This document shows positions 5,894-52,628 of a stretch of DNA of 52,628 bases, piece by piece. Under the pieces are notes generated by a model. That model saw only the letters and a list, made by a program, of their open reading frames with translations. It was not told where the DNA came from and searched no databases. A program made the translations under genes and the position numbers. The DNA comes from a virus (lineage: Duplodnaviria > Caudoviricetes), in the IMG/VR virus record IMGVR_UViG_3300028840_002598, positions 1 to 52,628 of that record. One strand, written 5' to 3'. Numbering within the stretch: position 1 is the first letter of the stretch; every line of letters starts with the position of its first letter.

Positions 5894-6304
5894 ATGAGCA
5901 ACGCACCAAGACTGATCAAGCGCTATCCCCTCCCAGAGTATTGCGACTGTCGGGAGGTGGTCATGCGCGAACTGGAGGCCAAGGACGATATCCAGTCCGC
6001 GATCTGGGCGGACCAGAACGCCTCCAGCGCCCTCAAGGGCTCCGCGATCGCGGCGATCCAGGCGGACAAGCGGGAGTCCATTCGCTGTTCCCTGGTGGAG
6101 GTTGACGGCGAACCGGTGAACCTGGACGGCGTTCCTTTCATGGCCATGGACTCCTGGTCCCACCGGACCCTGATCTACATCGAAGCGTTTTTCAACGATC
6201 TGAATGGCGTAGAAATGGAGGACGTAAAAAAGGCGGTAGCGGGGGGCGCGATCGTGACCGCGACTCCCCGCGCGGAAAGCGCCGATCAGCCTACCGGCGA
6301 GTAA
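5894..6304 (+). CDS. Tail assembly chaperone (gpG-like)
   Basis: Between tube and tape measure; contains the A AAA AAG slippery site at 6226-6232. Confidence 0.8.
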   Translation: MSNAPRLIKRYPLPEYCDCREVVMRELEAKDDIQSAIWADQNASSALKGSAIAAIQADKRESIRCSLVEVDGEPVNLDGVPFMAMDSWSHRTLIYIEAFFNDLNGVEMEDVKKAVAGGAIVTATPRAESADQPTGE

Positions 6305-6501
6305 CACAGCGCCTCATGGCGGAATTCGTCCGGTGTGGTTGGCACGCGGACGGGATGCCATGGGGGACGTATCTCACCCTCACGCTGAACGAACGCTGGG
6401 CGCTACACCGAGGAATAGATGACCTGATCGAACGGACGGCGCCCGATGACGGAGGCGCCGGACTTGGCTCCCTGGCCCGGCCCAAGCGCTGGCGAAAGTA
6501 G
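6226..6501 (+). CDS. -1 frameshift extension of the chaperone (gpGT-like)
   Basis: The -1 frame is open from the in-frame A AAA AAG heptamer through ORF 6316-6501, ending just before the tape measure. Confidence 0.75.
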   Translation, partial: KKGGSGGRDRDRDSPRGKRRSAYRRVTQRLMAEFVRCGWHADGMPWGTYLTLTLNERWALHRGIDDLIERTAPDDGGAGLGSLARPKRWRK

Positions 6502-6504
6502 GAC

Positions 6505-8427
6505 ATGGCCCAGACAACGCTCTATGATATTCGCCTCCGCTACCAAATGGAGGACCGCGCCACGCGGCCCATGCGGGCCATGTCCCAGCAAGTTGAGCGG
6601 ACGGCGAAGTCCTCGCGGTTGCTGTCCTCCGCGTGGGGCAAGATCGGCGCGGCCGCTGGCGCTTACTTCGGGGTTCGCGCCGGGGCGAAACACCTGATCG
6701 GGTTCAACGCCTCCATGGAACAGGCCAAGATCCAAATGGCCGGCATGGTGTCCCTGACCACAAAAAAGGGCTGGACGGAATCCATGGGCGAGGCCACCGC
6801 GCTGGTGGATCGCCTCCAGGAGCGCGCCAAAAAGTCCGTGGGCACCACCAAGGACATGGTGGACATGTCCTCGCTGATCGTGAGGCCGATCAGCCAAGCC
6901 GGCCTTGGAATGCAAGATCTTGAGGATCTCACCGCCGGCGCCGTGGTGGCCGCGCGCGCGTTCGGCATGGAGGCGGACGTGGCCGCCCGGGACATCGAAT
7001 CCGTGCTAATGGGCCGCGTGCGCTCCGTGGACCTGTTCGCCCGCGCCCTCCTCGAACCCATGGGGATGATCGGGGACAAGGGCCGCGAGGCGTTCAACGC
7101 CATGAGCGCCCAGCAACGCGCCATGTATCTGAAAAGCGCGCTCACCAGCGAAGCGATCACGAACATGGCCAAGGCGCAGGAAAACTCATTCTCCGGCGTC
7201 TATTCCACGTTTCAGGACAACCTCCAGATCTTTCTGGGCAAGGTTGGCCTCCCCCTGTTCCGCGCCCTCACCGGCGAGATCCGATCGTGGAACGTGTGGA
7301 TCCACGCGAACGCCGATCGCGTGGAGGAGATGTCCCAGAAGCTCGCCAAGGGCCTCGCGTCGATCTTCGGGCTCCTCCGGGACGTGGCCGGTTTCTTTGT
7401 GAACCACGCGGATACGCTCCTCCTGGTGGCCAAGGGGTTTGCCGCGTACAAACTAGGCACGATGGCCGGGGGCCTGGTGGGCCAGGTAGGAGGGCTAACC
7501 GGGCGCCTCACGCGGCGAGCTGGCGCCGGGCTCCTCATGGGCAACATGAACAAGGCCGGTTTGTCCGTGGCCAAGTTCGGAGCCGGCATCGCCACGGCCG
7601 CGGGCGCGGTTGCCAAGTACGCGGGCGCCGTGGGTGTGGCCTACGTGGCAATGAAAGGGCTCTATGACTGGTGGCGCTCCGCGGAGAACAAGCGCCGCGC
7701 TGAGGAGCGGAAGCGAATTCAAAAGGGCCAGGAGGTAATGGAGCGCGTTAGCGTTCCCAAGCTGGGGGAAAGTATCGCAACCTACGGCGCCGGCATGAGC
7801 GAGCTGGAGAAGCTCGCGGCGAAACGCGAGGCGGTGGGGTTCTTTGGGGCCAGGGCCGGAACGCCGGAACACATGAAAGCGTTTCGCGCGGAGAATGAGG
7901 AGCAATACCTCCGCGAGGTGCAACTGGCCACCACGCTGGGGGGCAAGGCCGGCGAGATCCGCGGCATGTACAAACAGATCGCCGAATACGCCCAGCAAAC
8001 CGGCCTCAGCCCCACAAACCTGGCCGAATTCAAAGCGTCCGATTTCAAGGGATACGCTCAACAGATCGCCACCAAGGAGGGCGTTCTGGAACAGGAATTC
8101 GCCGTCCAGTCTATCGAGTCCGCGCTACAGCGCCTTAACATGGAGATGGCGAACAGCACGGACCGCGCCGGGGACTTCGCGCGCATGTTGCAGGGGACCT
8201 ACCTCCCCAGCGTTCTGGCGTCCGCCATGGAAACGCACCGGGCCGCCGGCCAGGAGGGACCGTCCACGGCGTTGCCACCGATCGGAGGAGCTGGCAAGCC
8301 TCCCAAGATCAACGTGACGATCCACCGAATCGAGGCGAAGTCCGAGGACCCGGATCGATTCGTGTTCGATCTCGCGCGCACGTTCGAGGACGTGGCGCGG
8401 ACCGGAAGCTACAGGGGAGGCCCGTAA
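6505..8427 (+). CDS. Tape measure protein
   Basis: 640 aa Ala/Gly-rich helical protein with hydrophobic central segments; canonical position. Confidence 0.88.
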   Translation: MAQTTLYDIRLRYQMEDRATRPMRAMSQQVERTAKSSRLLSSAWGKIGAAAGAYFGVRAGAKHLIGFNASMEQAKIQMAGMVSLTTKKGWTESMGEATALVDRLQERAKKSVGTTKDMVDMSSLIVRPISQAGLGMQDLEDLTAGAVVAARAFGMEADVAARDIESVLMGRVRSVDLFARALLEPMGMIGDKGREAFNAMSAQQRAMYLKSALTSEAITNMAKAQENSFSGVYSTFQDNLQIFLGKVGLPLFRALTGEIRSWNVWIHANADRVEEMSQKLAKGLASIFGLLRDVAGFFVNHADTLLLVAKGFAAYKLGTMAGGLVGQVGGLTGRLTRRAGAGLLMGNMNKAGLSVAKFGAGIATAAGAVAKYAGAVGVAYVAMKGLYDWWRSAENKRRAEERKRIQKGQEVMERVSVPKLGESIATYGAGMSELEKLAAKREAVGFFGARAGTPEHMKAFRAENEEQYLREVQLATTLGGKAGEIRGMYKQIAEYAQQTGLSPTNLAEFKASDFKGYAQQIATKEGVLEQEFAVQSIESALQRLNMEMANSTDRAGDFARMLQGTYLPSVLASAMETHRAAGQEGPSTALPPIGGAGKPPKINVTIHRIEAKSEDPDRFVFDLARTFEDVARTGSYRGGP

Positions 8428-8428
8428 C

Positions 8429-9538
8429 GTGTCCAGCGCCGGCGCATTCACGATCCAGGAGATAGGACGGATCGGACGCAAAACCGGAGGGCGGCCGGAT
8501 GGCGGCCCGTCCGCCTCATTCGAGTGGGTGTCCGATCGAACGCCGCCGGACCCGGCAAAGGGCGGCGCGCGCGCGTGCCCCCTCGCGCCGTGGAACATGG
8601 GCGGCACCATGCGGCACGTGCGAACCGACTACAGCGGATCGCGCACGCCGTCCGTTCAAGTCCTTGGCCCCAGGAAAAAGGCCCAGACGTTCCGCGGCCG
8701 CTGGGATGATCGTTACAATTTCGCCGGCTACGCGGCCGGGGAAATGCGGCGGTTCGAGGCCATGTGCGAGCGCGGGAACCTGGTCCGGATCCAGTTCCAG
8801 GGCCAGGCGTTCGAGGGCCAGATCACGGACTGGGATTTCCCCTACCGGCGAGCCTGGTACATCGAATACACGTTCACGTTTGATCCCCACGTGCGAGCGG
8901 GGGAGGCGAACATGGACGATCGTTCGCCCACCACCACCGTGTCCACTCAGCAAGCGTTCGATGATCTGGACTTCCTGGTGGACACGATCCTGGACGCACA
9001 GGACTACGCGCCGCGCACGGCCGTTGCCGGGGATGTCATGGACACCGTGGACGCCTCGCTGGCCTCCATGAGCGCGAGCCGGGACGCCATCGGGGACACC
9101 CTCGATCAGCGTGAGTTGATCAAGGAGGACGTGAGGCCGATCGAGGCGTTCACCAGGATGGCCACGCAATTCCGGCAAGCCCAGAATGACGCGCTTTCGA
9201 TCCTGGACGATCTCACCGCCGTGCGATCGGACCTGGACCTGGCGCACAGGACGGCCATGTCCGTGCTGGCGTTCGAGGACTGGTCACGATCGATCCGGTT
9301 CCGGGCTCGCGTTGCGCTGGGCACCTCGCGCGCGGCGGCGCTTGGCGTGGAGGAGCGTTCGGACCCGAACGCGCTCGCGCTGTACCGTCCCCACCGCGGG
9401 GAATCGCTTATGAAGATCTCGCGGCGGTTCTACGGGACGCCGCATTGCTGGGGCCTGATCGCCGAACGGAACGCGCTCACCACGATGGCGCTCACCGGGG
9501 ACGAATTGCTGATCATCCCGGAGCGGGGGACCGGCTAG
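8429..9538 (+). CDS. Tail tube initiator/baseplate protein with C-terminal LysM-like domain
   Basis: C-terminal GESLMKISRRFYG..WGLIAERN..LIIP; follows tape measure. Confidence 0.75.
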   Translation: MSSAGAFTIQEIGRIGRKTGGRPDGGPSASFEWVSDRTPPDPAKGGARACPLAPWNMGGTMRHVRTDYSGSRTPSVQVLGPRKKAQTFRGRWDDRYNFAGYAAGEMRRFEAMCERGNLVRIQFQGQAFEGQITDWDFPYRRAWYIEYTFTFDPHVRAGEANMDDRSPTTTVSTQQAFDDLDFLVDTILDAQDYAPRTAVAGDVMDTVDASLASMSASRDAIGDTLDQRELIKEDVRPIEAFTRMATQFRQAQNDALSILDDLTAVRSDLDLAHRTAMSVLAFEDWSRSIRFRARVALGTSRAAALGVEERSDPNALALYRPHRGESLMKISRRFYGTPHCWGLIAERNALTTMALTGDELLIIPERGTG

Positions 9539-9539
9539 G

Positions 9540-11126
9540 ATGTCCCGGGTTTACTATCCGCAATGCCGCGCGATCCTCCAGGTGGTTTTCGATGGCTTCG
9601 GGGCGGACGCGCGGGACACGGAACCGATCATCTTTCCCGTGCTTCCCAAGGCCGCCACGGTCCACCGGAACGCCTACGATGATCCGGACTCCTGGGAGAT
9701 TACGTTTGACGCGGACGATTTCCCCGTCGACCCCCAGCTAGTCCGCGCCGGCGCCGCGGAGGTGTACCTATTCCAGACACCCGGCCAGGGCAACCCGGAG
9801 CTAATGGATCGCCAGTTCAGCGCCCTGGACGCGCCCACCTCCGGCCGTGAGCGCTCGCCGGCTGAGGAGCTGGGCCTGGAGGTGAAGGCACAGAACAGCA
9901 AGGAGCGCTTTGTGTGGGGCACCAAGCCCACCGTGGCCGGGCTGTTCGATGACATGACCGCGAACTATGACGATTCCGGCCGGTGGATCACGATCAGCGG
10001 CCAGGATTACACGGCCTACCTGGACGGCCGGCAATGGCCCCCCACGGACAAGGGCAAGCCGCGGCGCATCCCCACCGGCAAGCGCCTGGACAGATTCGTC
10101 CAGGCGATCCTCGCCATGGCGGACCCGGACGATCGCCTGGGTGTTGAGGTGTGGGGCGTCAAGGACTCCCAGCTCCCACGTGTGGGCCAGAACGAAACGC
10201 GCGGCAAGCGGCGCGGCATCCCGATCGAACAGGATACGACCTATTGGGACGTTATCTCGAAAACGGTCCGGCGCCACGGGTTCGTGTGTTTCGTGCGCGG
10301 CCTGGAGGTGATTATCACGCACCCCCAGAACCTCACCACGGCCGGCGCGATCGATGTCCGGCGCTTCACATGGGGAAAGAACCTCGAATCCCTGGAACTA
10401 ACCCGGCACCTCGGAAAGAAAACCGTTCCCTCGATCATCATTCAGTCCTATTCGGACCGGGATCGCGAGCCAATCACGATCGAGTATCCGAAAGGCGCCT
10501 GGCAAAAAGTCAAAACCAGCTCGCGGAAGCTCAAGCGCGGAGGCACCTCCACCAGTATCAAGAAAACGAACGAATACGAGATCATTCCGGTGTATGGAAT
10601 CACCGATCGCGCCGTGCTTCGCCAGATGGCCAAGGCGCGCCACGATCGGCTTGGCCGCGAGGAGCGGGAGGTGATCTTTAGAACACGCGATCTCACGGAC
10701 ATCAGAGATCGGGACATCATGGACCTGGCCGCCGGCGATTCCGTGTCCCTGAACTGGGACGAATTCTCGCGGGACCATGCGCTCCTCAGCGATGAGAAAG
10801 TCCCCGAGGCCACCAAGGTGAGCCACCTCCTATCGCGCGGGTTCACCGAGGGCGCGGCACAGGTGATCGCGTCCAAGTACACCGAGCTACGCGGCCTCAC
10901 GCGCCCGCTCCGTGTGGGTGAGGTGAGCTACGAATACGACGTCGACAACGGCGTGAGCATTGAGGGCCGCTTGCTGGACTACATCGTGGTCGACGGGCTC
11001 CGTGACCAGGCCGCGAAAACGCCGCGGAAGTCCGCGGCCAAGCGCGAACAGAAGCGGAGGAAAAGGGACGGCACCGGCGTGGGCGATCTAACCTGGAACC
11101 ACCTCAAGGGGACGGCGCTCGAATGA
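9540..11126 (+). CDS. Baseplate hub protein (P2 gpD/Mu gp44-like)
   Basis: ITISGQDYT, YWDVI and FTWGKNL motifs; position. Confidence 0.75.
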   Translation: MSRVYYPQCRAILQVVFDGFGADARDTEPIIFPVLPKAATVHRNAYDDPDSWEITFDADDFPVDPQLVRAGAAEVYLFQTPGQGNPELMDRQFSALDAPTSGRERSPAEELGLEVKAQNSKERFVWGTKPTVAGLFDDMTANYDDSGRWITISGQDYTAYLDGRQWPPTDKGKPRRIPTGKRLDRFVQAILAMADPDDRLGVEVWGVKDSQLPRVGQNETRGKRRGIPIEQDTTYWDVISKTVRRHGFVCFVRGLEVIITHPQNLTTAGAIDVRRFTWGKNLESLELTRHLGKKTVPSIIIQSYSDRDREPITIEYPKGAWQKVKTSSRKLKRGGTSTSIKKTNEYEIIPVYGITDRAVLRQMAKARHDRLGREEREVIFRTRDLTDIRDRDIMDLAAGDSVSLNWDEFSRDHALLSDEKVPEATKVSHLLSRGFTEGAAQVIASKYTELRGLTRPLRVGEVSYEYDVDNGVSIEGRLLDYIVVDGLRDQAAKTPRKSAAKREQKRRKRDGTGVGDLTWNHLKGTALE

Positions 11127-28422: not shown

Positions 28423-28460
28423 GGCCCCCGCTAGATTCACCCTGGCGGGGGCCATTTTTA
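28423..28460 (+). terminator. Intrinsic terminator
   Basis: 12-bp stem GGCCCCCGCTAG/CTGGCGGGGGCC then ATTTTTA. Confidence 0.8.
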
Positions 28461-28473
28461 TGGGCGGTTTTAC

Positions 28474-28503
28474 TTGCCTCCGCTTTTACTGTGGTCCTAC
28501 AAT
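28474..28503 (+). promoter_or_regulatory. Sigma70-type (probably early) promoter
   Basis: TTGCCT-N18-TACAAT in a conspicuously AT-rich patch. Confidence 0.65.
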
Positions 28504-28545
28504 AATAGTCCGGGCCAAGTTTATTCAGCGACACAGGAGGCAACG

Positions 28546-28812
28546 ATGACACAGAAAAGAACCAGCGATGCAACCCGCGAGGACGTGATCCAGGCGATCG
28601 GCAAGTGCGATGGCATGGGAGTGGAGGCGTTCCTCACCGCGCACGGTTACCGCGCATCCCTCAAGTATCAGCTCCGCTACGGCGGCAAGCTGTATCCGTC
28701 CAAGGCGATCTTGGGCGTGGCGTGCGGCCTCACCGCGCGCCAGTTCTCCGGCGGCGCCGCGCACACGGTCCGCGTTCTCCACGGCCTCGGTTTCGAGGTG
28801 GTGTCACGATGA
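28546..28812 (+). CDS. Stand-alone ScoMcrA-like N-terminal head domain (88 aa)
   Basis: TREDVIQAI..D..G.EAFL..HG...Y.L..GK.YPSKAILGVA...FSGG..HTV..L..LGF.V, recalled from N-termini of type IV restriction enzymes. Confidence 0.7.
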   Translation: MTQKRTSDATREDVIQAIGKCDGMGVEAFLTAHGYRASLKYQLRYGGKLYPSKAILGVACGLTARQFSGGAAHTVRVLHGLGFEVVSR

Positions 28813-30113
28813 CCGCGCACGGTTTCGACGCCACCGAACTGGTGGAGCTTCTGTCCGGCGTGGACTTCCCGATCCCGGCGCCGGCGGACATCGATCTACC
28901 ACTCGATCCGATCGCCTACTTCGCCAGCGGTTGCCAGCGCGGCGAGGTTGCCGGGTTCGCGGCGATCGGCCATGACGTGGGCGTGGCCGCCGGTTCCGTC
29001 AACGCGGACGTGGAGGGCGAACTGTGCGCGCTCGCCGGAACCGATGTCCAGGCGTTCATTGACTCCGGCGCGTTCGCGGAATTCCGAGCCCAGCTCAAGG
29101 GCAAGTCCGCCCCCGTCAAGTGGGACAAGGTGATCGCGCTTTACAAGCGCGTGGGCGCCGTCCTCGGTGACCAGCTCCACGTGGTGGCGCCGGACGCCAT
29201 CGGGGACCAGGGCGAAACGCTGGCGCGCCTCGAACGCTACGCGGAGGACATGCGCGAACTGGACGCCATGGGCGTGCGCGTCCTCATGCCCGTGCAACGC
29301 GGAACGTTCACCCAGGAGAGTTTCTATCGGCGCTGTGTTGAGGTGCTGGGGTTCGAGCCTATCCCCGCGCTTCCGTGCCGCGCCAGCGCCACCTCCGTGG
29401 AGGAGGCGGAACAGTTTGTGGCCGCCGTCCAGCCTACCGTGATCCACCTCCTCGGCCTTGGGCCGCGTGGGCACAAGGCCAAGCGCTACTTGGCCCGTAT
29501 CGCGGAGGCGTGCGCGTTCACCATGGTGCAAATGGATTCGTGCATCATTGCCGCGCACGCTGGGAAAACGAAAGGGCCGGGCGGCGGCCCCCGTCGCCTC
29601 ACCGCGGCCGCGGGGATCGTCAACGGCATGGCCGAACGCGGCGAACTGTCCTCGGACGTTCAGACCCGCAAGGCGGCCGGCGTGATCCTGGCGCTCCGGG
29701 ACATGGACACCGGCAAGCGCCGCGAACTGATCGAGGAGGCCAAGCGCGCGATCGCCGCGGACGCCAAGATCGTGGACCCGGTGGAGATGCCGGCCGGCGT
29801 CCTCCTGTGGCCGGAGGGACCGGCGTCCGTTGCCCACCAGCACGCTTTCCTTTGCCACCCGGACGGCGAGGAATGCCCGGACGGTTGCGACTGCGCACCG
29901 GACCCGCTCCGGGTGGAGGCGCTCCGCGCGGCCCCGGACCTGTTCGAGAGTTGCGAGAAGTGCGGCGCCGTCCTCCTCCCCGGCCGCGAGGTGTGGCTGG
30001 AACTGGACTCCACCACCGGCAAATGGTGGCCGGAGGGCGCCGTCCCCGATGAGCGCTCCCAGGGCTGTTTCGCGTTCGGCGCGGACTGCGCCCGCAAGGC
30101 GGTGAAGCGATGA
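28809..30113 (+). CDS. TGT-fold/DpdA-like base-exchange enzyme fused to Cys-rich C-terminal domains
   Basis: FIDSGAF, VAPDAIGD, MPVQRG, IHLLG and MDS in TGT order; tail CEKC..VWLELD..SQGCFAFGADC. Confidence 0.7.
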   Translation: MTAHGFDATELVELLSGVDFPIPAPADIDLPLDPIAYFASGCQRGEVAGFAAIGHDVGVAAGSVNADVEGELCALAGTDVQAFIDSGAFAEFRAQLKGKSAPVKWDKVIALYKRVGAVLGDQLHVVAPDAIGDQGETLARLERYAEDMRELDAMGVRVLMPVQRGTFTQESFYRRCVEVLGFEPIPALPCRASATSVEEAEQFVAAVQPTVIHLLGLGPRGHKAKRYLARIAEACAFTMVQMDSCIIAAHAGKTKGPGGGPRRLTAAAGIVNGMAERGELSSDVQTRKAAGVILALRDMDTGKRRELIEEAKRAIAADAKIVDPVEMPAGVLLWPEGPASVAHQHAFLCHPDGEECPDGCDCAPDPLRVEALRAAPDLFESCEKCGAVLLPGREVWLELDSTTGKWWPEGAVPDERSQGCFAFGADCARKAVKR

Positions 30114-31021
30114 TCCGCGCGGTCGACCTGTTCGCCGGCTGGGGCGGTTTCACGCAAGGCGCGCAGGACGCCGGCGTCGACGTGGTGTGGGCGGCGAATC
30201 ATTGGCCGCTTGCGGTTCACGTCCACAGCACGAACCACCCGGGCGCCGTCCACGAATGCCAGGATCTCCAGCAAGCGGACTGGACAGCGCTCCCCGCGTT
30301 CGATCTCCTCCTCGCCTCGCCGGCGTGCCAGGGCCACAGCACGGCCTCCCAGCCGAAGCGCCGGCGCTACCATGACGCCCTCCGCGCAACGGCGTGGGCG
30401 GTGGTTGACTGCGCGGACGCCACGGAGCCCTCCGCTATCATCGTGGAGAACGTGCCCAGCTTTCGCAACTGGCGGTTGTTCCCGCTGTGGTGCGAGGCCC
30501 TCCAGCTCCTCGGCTATCACGTCCAGGACATGGAGTTGACGGCGAGCCACCACGGCGTCCCCCAGCGGCGCCGGCGCCTGTTCATTGTCGCCACGCGCCG
30601 CCAGTGTTCCCTCAAGCTCCCCAGCTCCTCCGTGGAGCCCGCGTTCGGTCCGTGCATCGACTGGGACGTGGACGGATGGCGGCCCGTCACGGCCGCCTCA
30701 ACGGGCGCACGCAAGCGCATCGCCAAGGGCCGCGCCAACCACGGCGCGCGATTCCTCACCCAGCACGTGAGCAACCACCCGGGCGTCCCCCTCGATCAGC
30801 CGATCCGGACCGTGACCACGAAAGATCAGTGGGCGGTGGTGGACGGCGATCGCTATCGCCCGCTCACCATGCGCGAGCTGGCGCGCGGAATGGGGTTCCC
30901 GGAGTCCTACGTGTGGCCGGGCGATCTCCGGCGCCGGGACGTTGTGCAAGGACTGGGGAACGCCGTATGTCCGCCCGTCGCCCGCGACCTGATCACCGCC
31001 GTGTCCTCCGAGGTGCATTGA
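30110..31021 (+). CDS. DNA (cytosine-5)-methyltransferase
   Basis: DLFAGWGG, SPACQ, ENV, QRRRR, RGMGFP, GNAV. Confidence 0.92.
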   Translation: MIRAVDLFAGWGGFTQGAQDAGVDVVWAANHWPLAVHVHSTNHPGAVHECQDLQQADWTALPAFDLLLASPACQGHSTASQPKRRRYHDALRATAWAVVDCADATEPSAIIVENVPSFRNWRLFPLWCEALQLLGYHVQDMELTASHHGVPQRRRRLFIVATRRQCSLKLPSSSVEPAFGPCIDWDVDGWRPVTAASTGARKRIAKGRANHGARFLTQHVSNHPGVPLDQPIRTVTTKDQWAVVDGDRYRPLTMRELARGMGFPESYVWPGDLRRRDVVQGLGNAVCPPVARDLITAVSSEVH

Positions 31022-31326
31022 TGCGCGCCAGGGATGCCGTGGGCCGCAAGATCGTGGCGCTCGAACAGCGCCGCACCATGACCACCGGCGGCCCGGTGTG
31101 GGAGCTGGAGGCGATCGTCCTGGACAACGGGACGCGCCTCTATGCGATGGCGCACGAACACCCGAGCGGTGACGGCTACCCGGTGGAGCTGTGCGTTTCC
31201 AAGGCGCCGCGTTGCAACGATTGCAGGCGCGGCGGCGCCTGGTTCATGATCGAATACCCGGGCGCACCCGTGACCGTGTGCCAGCGTTGCTACCACAAGC
31301 GCGCCGGCATGGAGCCGAACCGATGA
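31021..31326 (+). CDS. Hypothetical protein with CxxC pairs
   Basis: TGATG coupling; GAGG RBS. Confidence 0.6.
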   Translation: MRARDAVGRKIVALEQRRTMTTGGPVWELEAIVLDNGTRLYAMAHEHPSGDGYPVELCVSKAPRCNDCRRGGAWFMIEYPGAPVTVCQRCYHKRAGMEPNR

Positions 31327-31646
31327 CCCGGCGCGCACGGGCGCCGCGGATTTTCGTGGAGCGCGGCCAGGTGTACCGCGTTCTACGTGACGGCCAACCA
31401 CCGCGCCACGTCCAGGTGGCCAGCGTGTCCGAGGGCGCCACGTCCAAGGGCCAGCAACCGATCGCGCGCCTGTTCGAGGTGACGCGGAACGGAGCCCGCA
31501 AGGGCCGCAAGCGGATCGTGACGGCGCGCAACCTGGACGGCACGCCGCGCGAAACGAAAGCGAACCTGATCTCCCATTGGCTCACGTGGGACGTGGAGCG
31601 CCACACGTGGAACATGGGCGCACGCTTTGAACTGGTGGAGGACTGA
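31323..31646 (+). CDS. Hypothetical protein
   Basis: ATGA overlap; GGAG RBS. Confidence 0.6.
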   Translation: MTRRARAPRIFVERGQVYRVLRDGQPPRHVQVASVSEGATSKGQQPIARLFEVTRNGARKGRKRIVTARNLDGTPRETKANLISHWLTWDVERHTWNMGARFELVED

Positions 31647-31649
31647 AAG

Positions 31650-31901
31650 ATGGCCAAGACACGCAACGGGAAACCGCTCAAGGTGCGCCCTCAGCCGGCG
31701 CGCCTGTGCGACGGGCGCAACGCATGGAGGCACCTCACGCCGGAGAATCGGTGCAAGTTCCTGGCGTGGATCGCTGAGGAGGATCTGGAGGGAACGCCTC
31801 CAGGGCTCCGCGAGGCGCTCCTGGACGCCGCGGACGTTATCGCGAAACACCACGGCACGCCCGAAGCGGTGGCCGCCATCGCACGGCTGAGGCGCCGGTG
31901 A
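31650..31901 (+). CDS. Hypothetical protein
   Basis: GGAGG RBS; operon spacing. Confidence 0.65.
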   Translation: MAKTRNGKPLKVRPQPARLCDGRNAWRHLTPENRCKFLAWIAEEDLEGTPPGLREALLDAADVIAKHHGTPEAVAAIARLRRR

Positions 31902-32461
31902 GCGATCCGGATGACTGGTATCACGAGGAGGGCCGCGCGATGCCGTGGACCTATGAGGCCGCGGTGGAGCGCATCCTGGAGGAGGCGGACAAGCCCGGCG
32001 AAATTCTCGAGCCCGGCTACGCCCGCGATCGCGCCCGCGTTGCCGCGCGCGTTGCTCCGCTGGTGATTCGCATCGAACGAATGATCCACACGCTTCCGCT
32101 GGACACGCTGTCCGAGCTGGAGGCTATCCTCACCCCTTACGATCAACCGACACAGGAGGCACAGATGACACCTGAACGCAAGGGCAACTTGACCGCGTTC
32201 CTCACCATTCGATCGGACATGCCGCGCCCCAAGGACGCGCCGGAGGACTGGACGCCGCGCGTGGTCGCGGACCAGGAGGCCGCGGACTGGAGGGAGGCGG
32301 GTTACAGCGCCCGGGTGTATTCTCGCGCGCTGTGCGCCGATGGCGAACGCCTGGACGTGTGGTGCGTCCTGGTGCGCGAGCCCGTGGATCTGTCCACACC
32401 TGTGGACAGCGCTGTGGACGCGGAGGGCGGCGCGGACGATAACTTGACGCCGGCCGGCTAA
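31898..32461 (+). CDS. Hypothetical protein with probable in-frame internal start at 32165
   Basis: GTGA overlap; internal GACACAGGAG at 32149-32158 six nt before an in-frame ATG. Confidence 0.55.
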   Translation: MSDPDDWYHEEGRAMPWTYEAAVERILEEADKPGEILEPGYARDRARVAARVAPLVIRIERMIHTLPLDTLSELEAILTPYDQPTQEAQMTPERKGNLTAFLTIRSDMPRPKDAPEDWTPRVVADQEAADWREAGYSARVYSRALCADGERLDVWCVLVREPVDLSTPVDSAVDAEGGADDNLTPAG

Positions 32462-48547: not shown

Positions 48548-50962
48548 ATGGCCGATCCGCACACCACCGGCGCGCCGTTCGTGCCCCCCGGGCACTATCG
48601 GCCACCCGGGCGGGATGCGCCGCTGTTCCCCGCCATGGGAAAAAGCGCGCGCGTCCAGCGAATGCTGGAACAGATCGCGGGCGAGGTTGCCGGGCTCGAG
48701 CCCGCTGTGATGCGAAAGCTCCTCCCCGTGTTCATGGAGGCGCGATCGGAATTGCGGAGCGCGCTCACCGAATGGCTCAAGGGCAAGGACGGCGCCGCGC
48801 GTTTCACCGCGCAACAATACCGGCGCGCCCTGGTGAACCTGGAGGGAGCCCTCCGCACCATGGCGAAACTCGATCCGGCAATGCGCGCCGCGCTTGAGGA
48901 CGGCGGGAACGTTGCCGGCCACCTCGCGGCGGAACACCTCGAATTTGAGCTGGCCCGGTTTGCCTCCGCGTTCGGTGAAACGATCCGGCCGATCCAGATC
49001 CAAACGGCGGCCATCATGGCCAAGGGCGATCGCTTCCTGATCCCCAGGTATCGAACCAGCGCGGCCCGCTACGCTGGCAACGTCATGGAGGACATTGGAC
49101 ACCAGCTCTCCGTGGGCGTGGCGCGTGGCGAAACATACACCCAGATGACGAACAGGCTCCGGCGCCTCGGAGGGCCTCGCGGCCTGGTGGCGCTCCGTGG
49201 AGTCCGCGGCGAACCCGGGGCCGTGGTGGAGGAGATCACGGAGGGCCTGTTCCGGCGCTATCGCAACTGGGGGGAGCGCGTGGTCCGCACGGAAATGCAG
49301 AACGCATACAACGTCCACGCGGACAACGGGATCGACGAATTGAACCAGATCGCACGCGAGCCCAAGGAGGCCCGGTTCCTCAAGCGCTGGGATGCGAGCG
49401 CGGACAAGCGCTTGTGTCACGTGTGCCGCGGCCTCGATCGCCAGGCCGTGCCCCAGGACGGCAAGTTCCACAGCGAGCTGGGCGAGCATGACCGGCCGCC
49501 GGCGCACCCGAATTGCCGGTGTATCATTTCGCCGTGGCTCAAGCGCTGGGGGAACGTCAAGCGGCCCGAGGAGCCCACGCCGATCTATCCGGGCAAGGAG
49601 GGCAAGGCGGCCAAGCCGAAGCGGCCCAAGGCCAAGCCGAAGCGCGCCAAGGCACCGGCCAAGCCGAAGCGCAAGGAGTTGACGGGCGCCCAGAAAGTCC
49701 GCGAACTGGAGAAGCTATCCGATCAGCGGGACACGCTGGCGGCCCGCGTGCGGGATCCTGGTGGAACCGAGGACATCCGGCGCGAGATCAAGGGCGTGGC
49801 CGCGGCGGCGAAAAAGGGAAAGATCCCGTTCGATACCTACCTGGAACGCTTGCGCGGCCTCAACGCCAAGCTGGACGCGGCGATCAAGGTGCAACCGGAG
49901 CCCGCGGACCTGTTCAAGCTGGACGCCATCAAGGAGGACATCTCCGCGCTACGCGCCACCGTGCGGCCCCAGGAGTGGCTGGACGCCCTGGTGGACGCCG
50001 GGACGGCCGGCAAGCAAGGCAAGTGGAAGCGCGCACGCCTGGCGCTGGAGGGCCACCTGGAGGCGAGCGAGGGGATCACCAGACAAGCCCACGAATGGGA
50101 TCACTCCGTGGCGCTCGCCAAGAACCACCGCTCCCTGGGGACTCACTACTGGAACGGCAAGATCAAGATCCGGACCGCGCAAGCCGAACACGGCAAGAAA
50201 TACCTGGACGCCTGGAAAGCGGACCCCAAGGCGGTGGAGGCCGTGGCCCGCGACTATGAGGCGAAGCGCCTGGCGATCCCCAGGCTCGAACGCGATCGCG
50301 ATCGGTTCCTGGCGCGCATGGATAAGGTGGAGGCCAAGATCACGGACATGAGCGCGGACATGGAGCGCGCTCGCGAGGCCAAGGACTGGGACAAGGTGGC
50401 CAAGCTCCGCAAGCGCCGCAACCTCCTCCGGGATGGCTGGGAGGAAATGGACCAGAAACTCCAGGCCACGTTCCGCGAGATCGACTCCACCCGCGGCGCG
50501 CTCCGAAAGCACGCCGGCGCGGAGCTGGCCAGGGACGTGGAGGGTTTGTCGACCGTGGTCCATGAGGTTGTCCACGGCACCGGCCCCAACTTTCGATACT
50601 CGGGGATCGGCGTGGCGTTGGAGGAGGTGACAACGGAGGCCACCGCGCGCCTATACCTCCAGCGAAATTTCGCCCTCCAGCGCGGCCTCGCCACCCGCGG
50701 CGTGTCTTATGACTGGTTCTTTGAGGAACAGATCAAGGCCATCCGTGAGGCTTACGGCGTCACGGAGCGGGTGGCCTGGGACATGCTGGAGTCCGCCTCG
50801 CTCAAGTTCAAGCGCGTGGCCTCCAGCTCCACCATGATGTCCGCGGAGGACGCCGCGGATCTGTTCGTGCGCCAGTTCAAGGACGGGGCGAAGCACAAGG
50901 AAGCGCTGATCCAGGGCCTCCGTGAGGGAATGAAACGACAACCCAGTTACCTGGCACAGTGA
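48548..50962 (+). CDS. MuF/SPP1 gp7-like minor head protein with C-terminal HExxH metallopeptidase-like extension
   Basis: RVVRTE..AYN, KRW..D.R.C..C..LD, PPAHPNCRC; then HEVVH (50561-50575) and LEEVTTE. Confidence 0.85.
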   Translation: MADPHTTGAPFVPPGHYRPPGRDAPLFPAMGKSARVQRMLEQIAGEVAGLEPAVMRKLLPVFMEARSELRSALTEWLKGKDGAARFTAQQYRRALVNLEGALRTMAKLDPAMRAALEDGGNVAGHLAAEHLEFELARFASAFGETIRPIQIQTAAIMAKGDRFLIPRYRTSAARYAGNVMEDIGHQLSVGVARGETYTQMTNRLRRLGGPRGLVALRGVRGEPGAVVEEITEGLFRRYRNWGERVVRTEMQNAYNVHADNGIDELNQIAREPKEARFLKRWDASADKRLCHVCRGLDRQAVPQDGKFHSELGEHDRPPAHPNCRCIISPWLKRWGNVKRPEEPTPIYPGKEGKAAKPKRPKAKPKRAKAPAKPKRKELTGAQKVRELEKLSDQRDTLAARVRDPGGTEDIRREIKGVAAAAKKGKIPFDTYLERLRGLNAKLDAAIKVQPEPADLFKLDAIKEDISALRATVRPQEWLDALVDAGTAGKQGKWKRARLALEGHLEASEGITRQAHEWDHSVALAKNHRSLGTHYWNGKIKIRTAQAEHGKKYLDAWKADPKAVEAVARDYEAKRLAIPRLERDRDRFLARMDKVEAKITDMSADMERAREAKDWDKVAKLRKRRNLLRDGWEEMDQKLQATFREIDSTRGALRKHAGAELARDVEGLSTVVHEVVHGTGPNFRYSGIGVALEEVTTEATARLYLQRNFALQRGLATRGVSYDWFFEEQIKAIREAYGVTERVAWDMLESASLKFKRVASSSTMMSAEDAADLFVRQFKDGAKHKEALIQGLREGMKRQPSYLAQ

Positions 50963-52165: not shown

Positions 52166-52628
52166 ATGGCCGATGTCAACCTGGCGGCGATTGCCGCAAC
52201 CCTCGCCACCCTGTTCGAGGACCGGATCACCTCCCAGATCAACCGGTCCTGTGTCGCCCTCCAGCTCCTCCCCGTGGGACCTGGTGAGGGTAAGAATCTG
52301 CAATGGTCGATCCGCGTGGGCTCCGGTGTGGGCACCAAGATCGCGGACGGCGCGGACGTTCAGGCCGGCGATTACCTGAACGATGACAAAATTCCCGCGA
52401 GCCTCGATTACGGGACCTACCACGCCGCTTTCGCGGTGACCGGCAAGGCCCTGGCCGGCGCGCTCGCCACCGGCAACCCCGCCGAACTGGCCGCCCTGTT
52501 CGCCGATGAGCTGGGGGACGCGATCGAGCGCCTGGCCAAGGGGATCCAGCAAGCGCTCTATGACGGCGACGGCACCACGGACGCCATGTTCGGCCTGTGC
52601 GCCACCGGTGGACCGCTGGATCAAACCG
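52166..52628 (+). CDS. Major capsid protein, 5' part (continues at 145-731)
   Basis: AAGGAG RBS; MADVNLAAIAATLATLFEDRITSQINRS..., open through the end of the window. Confidence 0.85.
   Translation, partial: MADVNLAAIAATLATLFEDRITSQINRSCVALQLLPVGPGEGKNLQWSIRVGSGVGTKIADGADVQAGDYLNDDKIPASLDYGTYHAAFAVTGKALAGALATGNPAELAALFADELGDAIERLAKGIQQALYDGDGTTDAMFGLCATGGPLDQT
52485..52628. repeat. 144-bp exact terminal overlap (copy 2)
   Basis: Identical to 1-144. Confidence 0.97.

Follow-up and report, generated by a model that had tools for sequence, protein, structure and literature searches.

Viral 7-deazaguanine DNA is recognized by its signature, the DpdA proteins, of which five subfamilies have been named (PMC10516641). 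The phage DpdA1 enzymes (phrog_887), represented by DpdA of phage 9g, insert preQ0, and some phages on record carry dpdA only and rely on the pathway of the host (PMC6884629). More recently the TIM-B/Beta_protein family (PF14350), which includes the beta protein of phage P4, was joined to the deazaguanine-transglycosylase fold (preprint 10.64898/2026.10.19.760177). Two further systems bear on the locus analyzed here. ScoMcrA is a type IV phosphorothioate- and 5mC-dependent HNH endonuclease whose N-terminal head domain (PF26345) is left without an assigned role in the account of its structure (PMC6224610). Giant polyvalent proteins, DarB-like injected multidomain proteins, are reported to carry effectors against many host targets, and the words queuine and Tgt are absent from the main text of the paper that founded this class (PMC5512222).

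The window is a complete phage of 52.6 kb (52,628 nucleotides), of which we analyzed the locus at 28423-31021 and the genes after it by computing homologies, fold, residue conservation, the pattern of fusion and splitting, and genomic distribution (Table 1). A preliminary description had presented this locus as a promoter-led cassette of three genes behind a terminator. The terminator and the three ATGA-coupled genes of 88, 434 and 303 codons were all found, with overlaps at 28809-28812 and 30110-30113. The terminator hairpin occupies 28423-28453, is followed by ATTTTTAT and comes first in the terminator list for 24-36 kb, and scans of 1-20 kb and 33-52.6 kb gave no site exceeding 8 pairs. The sigma-70-like promoter is also present, but as a pattern it does not rise above chance: the matches found against those expected from shuffled sequence were 1 and 0.7 in 24-36 kb, 1 and 2.9 in 1-20 kb, and 0 and 1.6 in 33-52.6 kb. 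Only its position makes it plausible, in a 169-nt AT-rich gap, directly past the terminator and upstream of a strong ribosome-binding site. The extended motif of this site has 12 copies in all, every one on the + strand, where 0.29 are expected. The idea of a self-contained cassette did not hold. Further coupled genes follow at 31021-31326 (TGATG overlap), 31323-31646 (ATGA overlap), 31650-31901 and 31898-32461, and no terminator was found between 31021 and the genes up to 32461, so that a longer early/replication operon begins with the three genes at its 5' end. A search for clues to the host with the large terminase gave no close relative among 185,579 genomes, and no tRNA genes were found in the phage.

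Table 1 Features of the locus and of the genes that follow it, in positions of the window.
Feature	Position	Strand	Remark
Intrinsic-terminator-like hairpin and T-run	28423..28463	+	12 pairs, 10 of them G-C; closes the upstream recombination genes
Sigma-70-like promoter match, TTGCCT-N18-TACAAT	28474..28503	+	9/12; plausible by position only
Extended ribosome-binding motif GACACAGGAG	28530..28539	+	16 nt upstream of the ATG of the 88-aa gene
88-aa ScoMcrA_N-type head gene	28546..28812	+	Predicted cap subunit of the barrel enzyme; ATG at 28546
434-aa barrel gene	28809..30113	+	DpdA-like TIM barrel plus C-terminal tail
Residues 1-304 of the 434-aa protein	28809..29720	+	Linker helix and (beta/alpha)8 barrel, unnamed DpdA-like family
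C-terminal 130 residues of the 434-aa protein	29721..30113	+	Cys/His-rich; low-confidence model
303-aa C5 cytosine DNA methyltransferase gene	30110..31021	+	Start overlaps the stop of the barrel gene (ATGA)
Two small coupled genes, 101 aa (Cys-rich) and 107 aa	31021..31646	+	No family match

The AF2 model of the 434-aa protein (P0001) contains a confident TIM barrel over residues 5-300, with eight beta/alpha units and a pLDDT of at least 87 in every 10-residue block of residues 11-300. The last 130 residues are Cys-rich, are modeled at a pLDDT of 31-69 and are common only to the closest relative (P0005). Foldseek against the PDB returned tRNA-guanine transglycosylases (TGT) in all of its best 50 rows (E 7.5e-7 to 9.9e-6). 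When the model was ranked against 48161 PDB representatives, the DNA preQ0 insertase DpdA (7ui4_A) came first (Z 14.3, rmsd 3.4 A, 196 aligned), with ArcTGT third and TGT fourth, and the best matches among DpdA, TGT and ArcTGT had Z values of 14.3, 13.3 and 13.0. The predicted (beta/alpha)8 barrel is therefore closest to TGT/DpdA structures, which agrees with the TGT/DpdA fold that had been assigned to this protein from its motifs.

All five of those motifs are present: DSGAF at 85-89, PDAIGD at 128-133, PVQRG at 161-165, HLLG at 213-216 and DS at 243-244. They provide as active-site candidates Asp85, Asp129, Gln163, His213-Leu215-Gly216 and Asp243. In an alignment of 59 barrel domains D85, D129, D243, H213, L215 and G216 are invariant (59/59), and the residue at position 163 varies (51 Q, 4 H, 4 P). 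The barrel family aligned by hhalign with the DpdA1 alignment (95.8%, E 7.8e-9) and with phage 9g DpdA alone (91.4%, E 9e-7, 149 columns), pairing D85 with D72, D129 with D114, Q163 with H141, H213LLG with H196GFG and D243 with D215. By this alignment the three putative active-site Asp (acid/base, base-reading and nucleophile), for whose DpdA equivalents roles are given in PMC10164549, are in register with 9g DpdA. Out of the 59 domains, 26 matched phrog_887 at an E value of at most 0.1 (best 3.3e-8), the match of P0001 itself being weak (E 0.02-0.04), and the experimentally validated 9g DpdA belongs to phrog_887 (2e-98). The sequence comparisons thus place the barrel family, in all likelihood, as a sister group of phage DpdA1 (phrog_887), with 9g DpdA as its nearest characterized relative, rather than as a member of it.

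Curated models do not recover this family. Pfam and PADLOC scans of P0001 gave no match to Pfam TGT (PF01702), DUF6610/DpdA4 (PF20314) or any other curated model, and the DpdA model of PADLOC is insensitive, 9g DpdA itself reaching only E 0.02. Membership in DpdA4 was rejected, since P0001 is unmatched and the barrel of one other locus (L011) reached only E 0.0094, short of the cut-off. We also rejected membership in TIM-B: hhalign against P4 beta gave 0.4% (E 0.15), and Pfam scans of family members gave no PF14350 match. A PF14350 search of 50 viral records likewise had no matches, its controls being unmatched as well. By features, the nearest Atlas cluster (0.95) bears the automatic name 'T4 beta protein family' and serves as a lead only. 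Among PDB sequences, phmmer and profile searches with the barrel gave no match apart from that of the head to ScoMcrA, and hhalign against the single E. coli TGT (1.75%) aligned only the DSGAF motif. The 59-domain alignment was also inspected for the structural Zn2+ site, a Cys/His cluster after strand 8, and contains no near-invariant Cys and no such His beyond H213; many members end near residue 300, and the Cys-rich tail of P0001 is lineage-specific. In TGT the loop after strand 6 reads the 7-substituent. In the barrel family this loop has the form P-A-L-P-C-K/R-x-A, with P189 invariant, and is unlike that of TGT.

The 88-aa protein had been described as the head domain of a type IV restriction enzyme, and our searches support this. 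It matched ScoMcrA (5zmm_A) at E 5.1e-9, or E 9.6e-15 in a profile search, and its fold superimposes on the ScoMcrA head with Z 11.0 and rmsd 1.6 A (69 aligned, 38% identity over the aligned core), residues 5-93 of ScoMcrA being the region matched in both sequence and fold. ScoMcrA was the sole fold match, the runner-up having Z 3.2, and the N-terminus of the PADLOC model mREase_IV was matched at 4e-10. In the 88-aa ORF the N-terminal head of ScoMcrA has a free-standing homologue; the PF26345 (ScoMcrA_N) label was taken from precomputed columns and from the Atlas. Among 17 longer relatives, 4 are HNH_2 proteins of about 424 aa that carry this head as well. It had been regarded as a domain borrowed from modification-dependent nucleases, but it is instead fused to the barrel in 46/65 sequence relatives and in 11/80 viral loci. 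As fusion is the usual state of head and barrel, the enzyme of the window is a split version, and the closest relative (L001) has the same ATGA split of head and barrel. The predicted head-barrel complex scored 0.91 (runs 0.91, 0.90 and 0.91), compared with 0.10 for the best control. The mark set by this score was reached by 58/80 solved complexes and by 2/110 mismatched pairs, at least 83% of contacts agree between the runs, and the partner has a pLDDT of at least 92. In these models the head is predicted to cap the narrow (N-terminal) face of the barrel, resting on residues 32-37, 54-56, 77-81, 210-211 and 236-239, rather than to read DNA.

The third gene had been called a Dcm-type methyltransferase. 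The 303-aa protein matched PF00145 (2.1e-44), phrog_116 (1.7e-72) and TIGR00675 (5.7e-39, over the cut-off of 100.65 bits) and contains SPACQ, ENV, QRRRR and GNAV, which we take to be the catalytic Cys, ENV, QxRxR and GN motifs. By its sequence it is an intact Dcm-type C5 cytosine methyltransferase. As a recurring system, in contrast, the triad did not withstand a search of gene neighborhoods. In the closest relative, a complete phage whose barrel is 76% identical, head and barrel are likewise split but Dcm is missing throughout, and L002 is the only other locus in which Dcm, head and barrel adjoin one another. Dcm is present in 22/50 family-bearing viral records, and in 9 of those 22 (11 counting two weak matches) it lies in the barrel polypeptide or within about 2.2 kb. 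Head, barrel and Dcm do not form a conserved recurring system.

To describe the surroundings of the family we compared its loci. In 39 of 80 viral loci the barrel lies within a giant polyvalent protein (ORF length 1000-4283 aa), alongside ART-PolyVal, InPase, Dcm, Mom or DUF6884, and the fusions seen comprise these five and a PAPS-reductase-like domain; in L044 the barrel is fused with both Dcm and Mom. All-against-all ORF clustering around 56 small-barrel loci gave no neighbor family in more than 7 loci, antisense artefacts aside, and a fixed multi-gene system is therefore rejected. The family is almost wholly viral and adjoins DNA enzymes. A tblastn search of 50,697 phage records with three family members gave no match in isolated phages, the one contig that a metagenome scan with P0001 brought up was that of the closest relative, and a genome scan for the barrel with a single pattern gave 15 loci. 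QueC was found in 2/50 family-bearing records (2/34 near-complete), whereas it was found in 16/17 DpdA1 records, a comparison set that is one close clade. In one of the family loci, L011, QueC and a QueE-like radical-SAM gene adjoin the barrel and Mom is close by; PTPS and FolE were not found in the record of this locus. In the complete phage of the window no QueC, QueD (PTPS) or FolE was found and no preQ0 genes. This phage makes no 7-deazaguanine precursor, so that either the host would have to supply the incoming base (as preQ0, preQ1 or CDG) or another base would be used. The 7-deazaguanine insertion put forward in the preliminary description thus stays conjectural.

We lean modestly towards the reading that the two genes encode one enzyme, a ScoMcrA_N-type cap and a DpdA-like barrel, which would exchange DNA bases beside Dcm and block restriction. 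What we infer here is that DNA is the substrate, that bases are exchanged, which base it is and that the DNA is protected against restriction. By analogy with the DpdA mechanism the enzyme would act on dsDNA after replication. Asp243 would attack C1' of the target deoxyguanosine to give a covalent enzyme-DNA intermediate, Asp85 of the DSGAF motif would serve as general acid and then as base, with Phe89 as gate, and a free base would take the place of guanine. The head would bind the N-terminal face as a structural cap and the adjacent Dcm would add 5-methylcytosine. With a base exchanger and Dcm leading an early/replication operon, new phage DNA would carry restriction-blocking changes at both G and C, and the putative early anti-restriction role fits the position of the three genes between recombination and replication genes. 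For the copies in giants of the injected type, self-modification and an attack on host molecules are equally plausible.

A second reading, which we regard as less probable and still worth serious attention, keeps the fold and the covalent chemistry and has the barrel insert a nucleobase other than 7-deazaguanine into DNA, or act as a glycosylase/lyase-like effector that removes a base, either as a step of phage DNA hypermodification or on host DNA. It would account for a family almost uncoupled from QueC, for a strand-6 loop unlike that of TGT and for fusions with Mom, Dcm, ART-PolyVal, the PAPS-reductase-like domain, InPase and DUF6884. However, the base-reading pair (Asp129 with Gln or His at 163) is as in guanine-specific enzymes, the barrel of L011 adjoins QueC and a QueE-like gene, and phages with dpdA only are already on record. 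That the barrel modifies RNA (tRNA, like TGT) or protein (like the CBASS TGT-like Cap10), Dcm being an unrelated neighbor, appears improbable to us. TGT, ArcTGT and a Cap10 complex (9ntn_B, Z 11.6) are among the structural matches, and the varied host targets of polyvalent giants would suit such an activity, but the nearest profile is that of the DNA-acting DpdA1 (91-96%, when the single-sequence tests gave 1.75% for E. coli TGT and 0.4% for P4 beta), the best structural match is a DNA insertase, and the recurrent partners Dcm, Mom and DUF6884 are DNA-modifying or DNA-binding.

We hardly credit an ordinary metabolic TIM barrel of the aldolase, phosphatase or sugar-phosphate type that would be TGT-like by fold only. 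Class II aldolases and DERA do reach Z 12-13.4, by Z tied with TGT and about 1 unit from DpdA, and P0001 has a weak Pfam 'Phosphatase' match (E 0.055). Against this stand the profile homology to DpdA1 with catalytic motifs in register, the phrog_887 matches of 26/59 domains, the uniformly TGT best 50 Foldseek rows and the almost wholly viral distribution beside DNA enzymes. A more speculative proposal, to which we give little credence, takes the head as a dedicated barrel cap that ScoMcrA-type restriction enzymes would carry as bait, docking on head-less phage barrels so as to sense or block them or to be recruited to the modifier, and has the largely QueC-free, often injected family insert a base that is not a 7-deazaguanine.

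Whichever base is handled, the barrel family, unnamed and with no Pfam model, is a sixth, sizeable DpdA-like branch (1230 clusters at 50% identity) and points to a large group of putative phage DNA-modifying enzymes. It is unseen by Pfam, NCBIfam and PADLOC models and absent from isolated phages, so that surveys relying on known models or on cultured phages would miss it. In the texts that our literature search covered we found no description of the family; members may already be among the homologues tabulated with PMC6884629, PMC10516641 and the TIM-B preprint. Its uncoupling from QueC and its presence in injected polyvalent proteins raise the question of which base is used and whether DNA bases could be exchanged just as the phage enters. 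The head of ScoMcrA gains a first testable role, as predicted partner of a TIM barrel.

Compared with phage DpdA1, the barrel family has a similar TIM barrel of about 300 residues with a nearly identical FxDSGAFS acid/base motif, the D-x-IGD base-reading Asp, H-x-x-G in strand 7 and the D-S nucleophile, and it is phage-encoded among DNA-metabolism genes. It differs in having no BLAST-level similarity to DpdA1, in replacing the second base-reading His by Gln in most domains (51/59), in its ScoMcrA_N cap, fused or encoded alongside, in the half of its copies that lie inside giant polyvalent proteins and in its scarcity of QueC. Bacterial DpdA (S. Montevideo, 7ui4), TGT and ArcTGT are its best structural matches, with three active-site Asp in equivalent strands, and its barrel has no N-terminal beta-sheet lid of its own, as is described for DpdA in PMC10164549. 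Unlike TGT and bacterial DpdA, the family has no Pfam TGT match and no conserved Zn-site Cys/His, and the barrel of the window has no large insertion after strand 8, its narrow face being predicted to lie under a separate head domain. TIM-B shares the recruitment of a TGT-like barrel into phage-host conflict, as presented in preprint 10.64898/2026.10.19.760177, but it sits with toxin effectors in defence operons. Half of the barrel copies are built into ORFs like those of polyvalent proteins, whereas the copy of the window is a small two-gene version in an early operon and not a virion-type giant. With ScoMcrA the likeness is confined to the head domain, which in the window is a free 88-aa protein without SBD, SRA and HNH domains; in ScoMcrA this head is described as flexibly attached (PMC6224610), whereas that of the window is predicted to dock on a TIM barrel.

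The locus is a split, capped, DpdA-like enzyme beside an ordinary Dcm methylase, heading an early operon; its chemistry is putative, as is any base it would insert. It encodes an 88-aa head protein, a 434-aa barrel protein (P0001) and the methylase, and lies between a lysis and recombination block on one side and replication genes on the other. The window holds 52,628 bases and is a complete virus record (100% estimated completeness) with an exact 144-nt direct terminal repeat (1-144 = 52485-52628), hence 52,484 unique bases, and the + strand carries all likely genes. The upstream phrog_3657 protein, whose tail (some 200 residues) abounds in Pro, Ala, Glu and Lys, is probably the annealing partner of the RecE-like exonuclease because the two adjoin. 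In the MuF-like minor head protein (804 aa, 48548-50962) the head-morphogenesis family match covers residues 55-390 only, and the remaining ~400 residues could be an injected effector.

Features of the locus and its surroundings in the window
Feature	Position	Strand	Remarks
Endolysin-like	24956	+	upstream of the three genes
RecE-like exonuclease	25686	+	upstream of the three genes
phrog_3657 protein, 491 aa	26901-28376	+	upstream of the three genes, adjoins RecE-like exonuclease
Terminator-like hairpin	28423-28453	+	12 pairs (10 G-C), then ATTTTTAT; terminator scan
Candidate promoter, TTGCCT-N18-TACAAT	28474-28503	+	sigma-70-like pattern match
Head gene, 88 aa	28546-28812	+	ATGA overlap with barrel gene
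Barrel gene (P0001), 434 aa	28809-30113	+	ATGA overlaps with head and Dcm genes
Dcm gene, 303 aa	30110-31021	+	ATGA overlap with barrel gene
HTH	32480	+	downstream of the three genes
DnaD-like	32766	+	downstream of the three genes
DnaC-like	33716	+	downstream of the three genes
RusA	35269	+	downstream of the three genes
Terminase, portal, MuF-like protein	from 44291	+	downstream
GACACAGGAG copies (one = GACGCAGGAG)	815, 5876, 18875, 20564, 25751, 26885, 28530, 32149, 40031, 41204, 43254, 50979	+	

No Pfam, NCBIfam or PADLOC model matched P0001. From a 25-row alignment AF2 modelled residues 5-300 as a confident eight-stranded beta/alpha barrel and the Cys-rich tail poorly. This Cys/His-rich extension (residues ~338-434, window 29820-30110; CH...C...C.C...C..C...C...C), common only to P0001 and its closest relative and of low model confidence, may bind zinc. 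The best 50 Foldseek PDB rows were all tRNA-guanine transglycosylase (TGT; 50/50), and in an exhaustive structural scan the top match was the DNA preQ0 insertase DpdA (Z 14.3, rmsd 3.4 A, 196 aligned), with ArcTGT at Z 13.3 and TGT at Z 13.0. Because aldolase-type barrels score within about 1 Z unit of these matches, the fold is insufficient alone, and it is sequence comparison that decides the predicted assignment. Profile-profile comparison of the family (the unnamed, mostly viral branch containing P0001) with a DpdA1 alignment gave 95.8% (E 7.8e-9), and in comparisons with single sequences the family profile scored 91.4% against phage 9g DpdA, 1.75% against E. coli TGT and 0.4% against P4 beta. 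A match to phrog_887 (E <= 0.1), of which the validated 9g DpdA is a member (2e-98), was found in 26 of the 59 barrel domains from viral loci, the best at 3.3e-8.

In the 9g alignment FIDSGAF stands opposite FLDSGAF, APDAIGD opposite LDGIGD, PVQRG opposite CFHAGE, HLLG opposite HGFG and MDS opposite CDS (family/9g). At the corresponding residues of S. Montevideo DpdA, Asp95 is the general acid/base and Asp256 the nucleophile, Asp130 and His181 read the base, and Phe99 and Leu236 are stacking residues (PMC10164549). D85, D129, D243, H213, L215 and G216 are invariant in all 59 family domains. At position 163, 51 domains have Gln, 4 His and 4 Pro, and there is no conservation of the canonical Zn site across the same alignment.

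The 88-aa protein resembles residues 5-89 of the type IV enzyme ScoMcrA (5zmm_A, E 5.1e-9), and the N-terminus of the PADLOC type IV enzyme model matches it at E 4e-10. Its model (pLDDT 94.4) superposes on the ScoMcrA head domain with Z 11.0 and rmsd 1.6 A over 69 residues (38% identity), the runner-up among 48,161 chains reaching Z 3.2. The preliminary description had named the folds correctly, among them a type IV restriction head and a TGT/DpdA barrel. The structural paper on ScoMcrA describes the head as a small domain on a flexible attachment whose function is unknown (PMC6224610). Of 17 longer proteins that contain the domain, four carry an HNH_2 nuclease and one DUF3427; the other 12 have the head label alone and most are barrel fusions.

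Several observations join head and barrel. A precomputed N-terminal PF26345 label is present in 46 of 65 proteins found with P0001 and missing from its 10 closest relatives among them. In the alignment the 88-aa protein lines up with the fused heads, and the first 30 residues of P0001 with the linker. The closest relative, a complete 52.4-kb phage (76% identity), has the identical split including the ATGA overlap (coordinates by arithmetic), so the split is inherited rather than an artefact of sequencing. The predicted complex scored 0.91 in three runs versus 0.10 for the best control. In the calibration, which holds only roughly here because the alignments were of our own construction, 58 of 80 solved complexes attained this mark, as did 2 of 110 mismatched pairs. 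Contact agreement between the runs was at least 83% and partner pLDDT at least 92; this is support for head-barrel contact, not proof. The predicted contacts (barrel residues 32-37, 54-56, 77-81, 121, 124, 155, 157, 185, 210-211 and 236-239) lie at the N-terminal ends of the eight strands, the narrow face, and would leave the catalytic face free. In tRNA enzymes an N-terminal beta-sheet closes that face, and DpdA is described as lacking this sheet (PMC10164549).

The three genes do not make up a recurring system: ORF clustering around 56 small-barrel loci gave no fixed neighbour, and a PF00145 search found no Dcm anywhere in the closest relative. Of 50 records with a family member, 22 contain PF00145. 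In 4 of the 22 it shares a polypeptide with the barrel (weak same-ORF matches in two more) and in 5 it lies within ~2.2 kb (distances by arithmetic), against about 2 of 22 expected from random placement in 40-90 kb genomes, a comparison in which records are non-independent and DNA-metabolism genes cluster anyway. One Dcm (L043) has the same 4-nt overlap as in the window, and another (L002) immediately precedes a gene in which head and barrel are fused. We take head and barrel together to be the functional unit, which Dcm accompanies often but not of necessity.

The hairpin, promoter-like site and three ATGA-coupled genes are all where the preliminary description had put them, and the hairpin has the longest stem among terminator-like sites in three scans of the window. 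Matches to the promoter pattern are no commoner than in shuffled sequence (1 versus 0.7, 1 versus 2.9 and 0 versus 1.6 expected in three scans); the site is a candidate whose position is the sole argument in its favour. Nor does the unit end at 31021 as proposed, since translational coupling continues through at least four further small genes with no terminator between. One ORF (31021-31326, 101 aa) overlaps the Dcm stop by TGATG, has zinc-ribbon-like C..C and C..C pairs and had no match in a PHROG search. The head-gene start is real and well served because GACACAGGAG sits 16 nt ahead of its ATG. All 12 copies of this motif in the window (0.29 expected) are on the + strand, 5-9 nt upstream of ATG or TTG and often preceded by CCACC; some of the genes would seem to use it as an extended ribosome-binding or translation-initiation signal. 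The copy at 32149 points to a start at 32165, within ORF 31898-32461.

The complete phage had no match to TGT, QueC, PTPS or GTP cyclohydrolase I, while control genomes were positive. QueC accompanies the family in 2 of 50 viral records (2/34 near-complete) and DpdA1 in 16 of 17 (13/13 near-complete), the latter set being one close clade. A telling positive case is L011, a 70-kb phage with no PTPS or FolE: next after the barrel come a radical-SAM (QueE-like) gene and QueC, and Mom lies 2 kb beyond. This island (5959-10469), where the 433-aa barrel converges on the radical-SAM gene, QueC, a 135-aa ORF of no family and the Mom-family gene, is a compact multi-modification cluster. Phages with dpdA only are on record, and their hosts mostly make the precursor (PMC6884629). 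A large-terminase search of 185,579 genomes and a tRNA gene scan found no host for our phage. Our leading guess, and only a guess, is that the inserted base is a host-supplied 7-deazaguanine.

The family profile retrieved 1230 clusters at E <= 1e-3 (855 at E <= 1e-30) from 1.84 billion representatives, with lengths of 203 to 4271 aa among the best 150 of the 1230. From 90 relatives in IMG/VR, 80 loci were retained; a scan of 185,579 species genomes, in contrast, turned up 15 family loci with a single search pattern, and tblastn with three family queries found no member in the isolated-phage collection. The barrel ORF has at least 1000 aa in 39 of the 80 viral loci and 500-999 aa in 7, is fused to a head in 11, and is headless in 13 (<360 aa) and 10 (360-499 aa). 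A Pfam scan of seven giants found InPase, DUF6884 (in two), Dcm with Mom, and ART-PolyVal with a PAPS-reductase-like domain; two had no domain match. DUF6884 is a probable DNA-binding, base-flipping domain (PMC11701544). One 1177-aa chain (L044, 4564-8097) holds three DNA-base-modifying modules in a single polypeptide: Dcm (51-426), DpdA-like barrel (~475-743) and Mom-like (1003-1089). In the giant ORFs of L032, L046, L062, L073 and L077 the barrel-profile match is much longer than one domain, a hint that some polyvalent proteins contain the barrel twice or carry large insertions.

The family is a large, uncharted viral group, although supplementary tables of the compared papers may list members; the main text of the polyvalent-protein paper contains neither queuine nor Tgt (PMC5512222). 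Neighbouring ESM Atlas clusters, leads only, carry 'T4 beta protein family' labels; in one, 17% of members bear PF23859 DpdA, and in another 100% bear ScoMcrA_N. P4 beta (TIM-B, PF14350), found in defence operons, is assigned to the same fold in a preprint of October 2026; membership of that branch is rejected by the profile comparison. Five DpdA subfamilies are named in PMC10516641, bDpdA and DpdA1-4, and neither BLAST nor Pfam matches the family to any of these. Given its profile kinship to DpdA1, its conserved active-site residues and a Zn site that is not conserved, it appears to be a sister group that should work like DpdA, outside every named subfamily.
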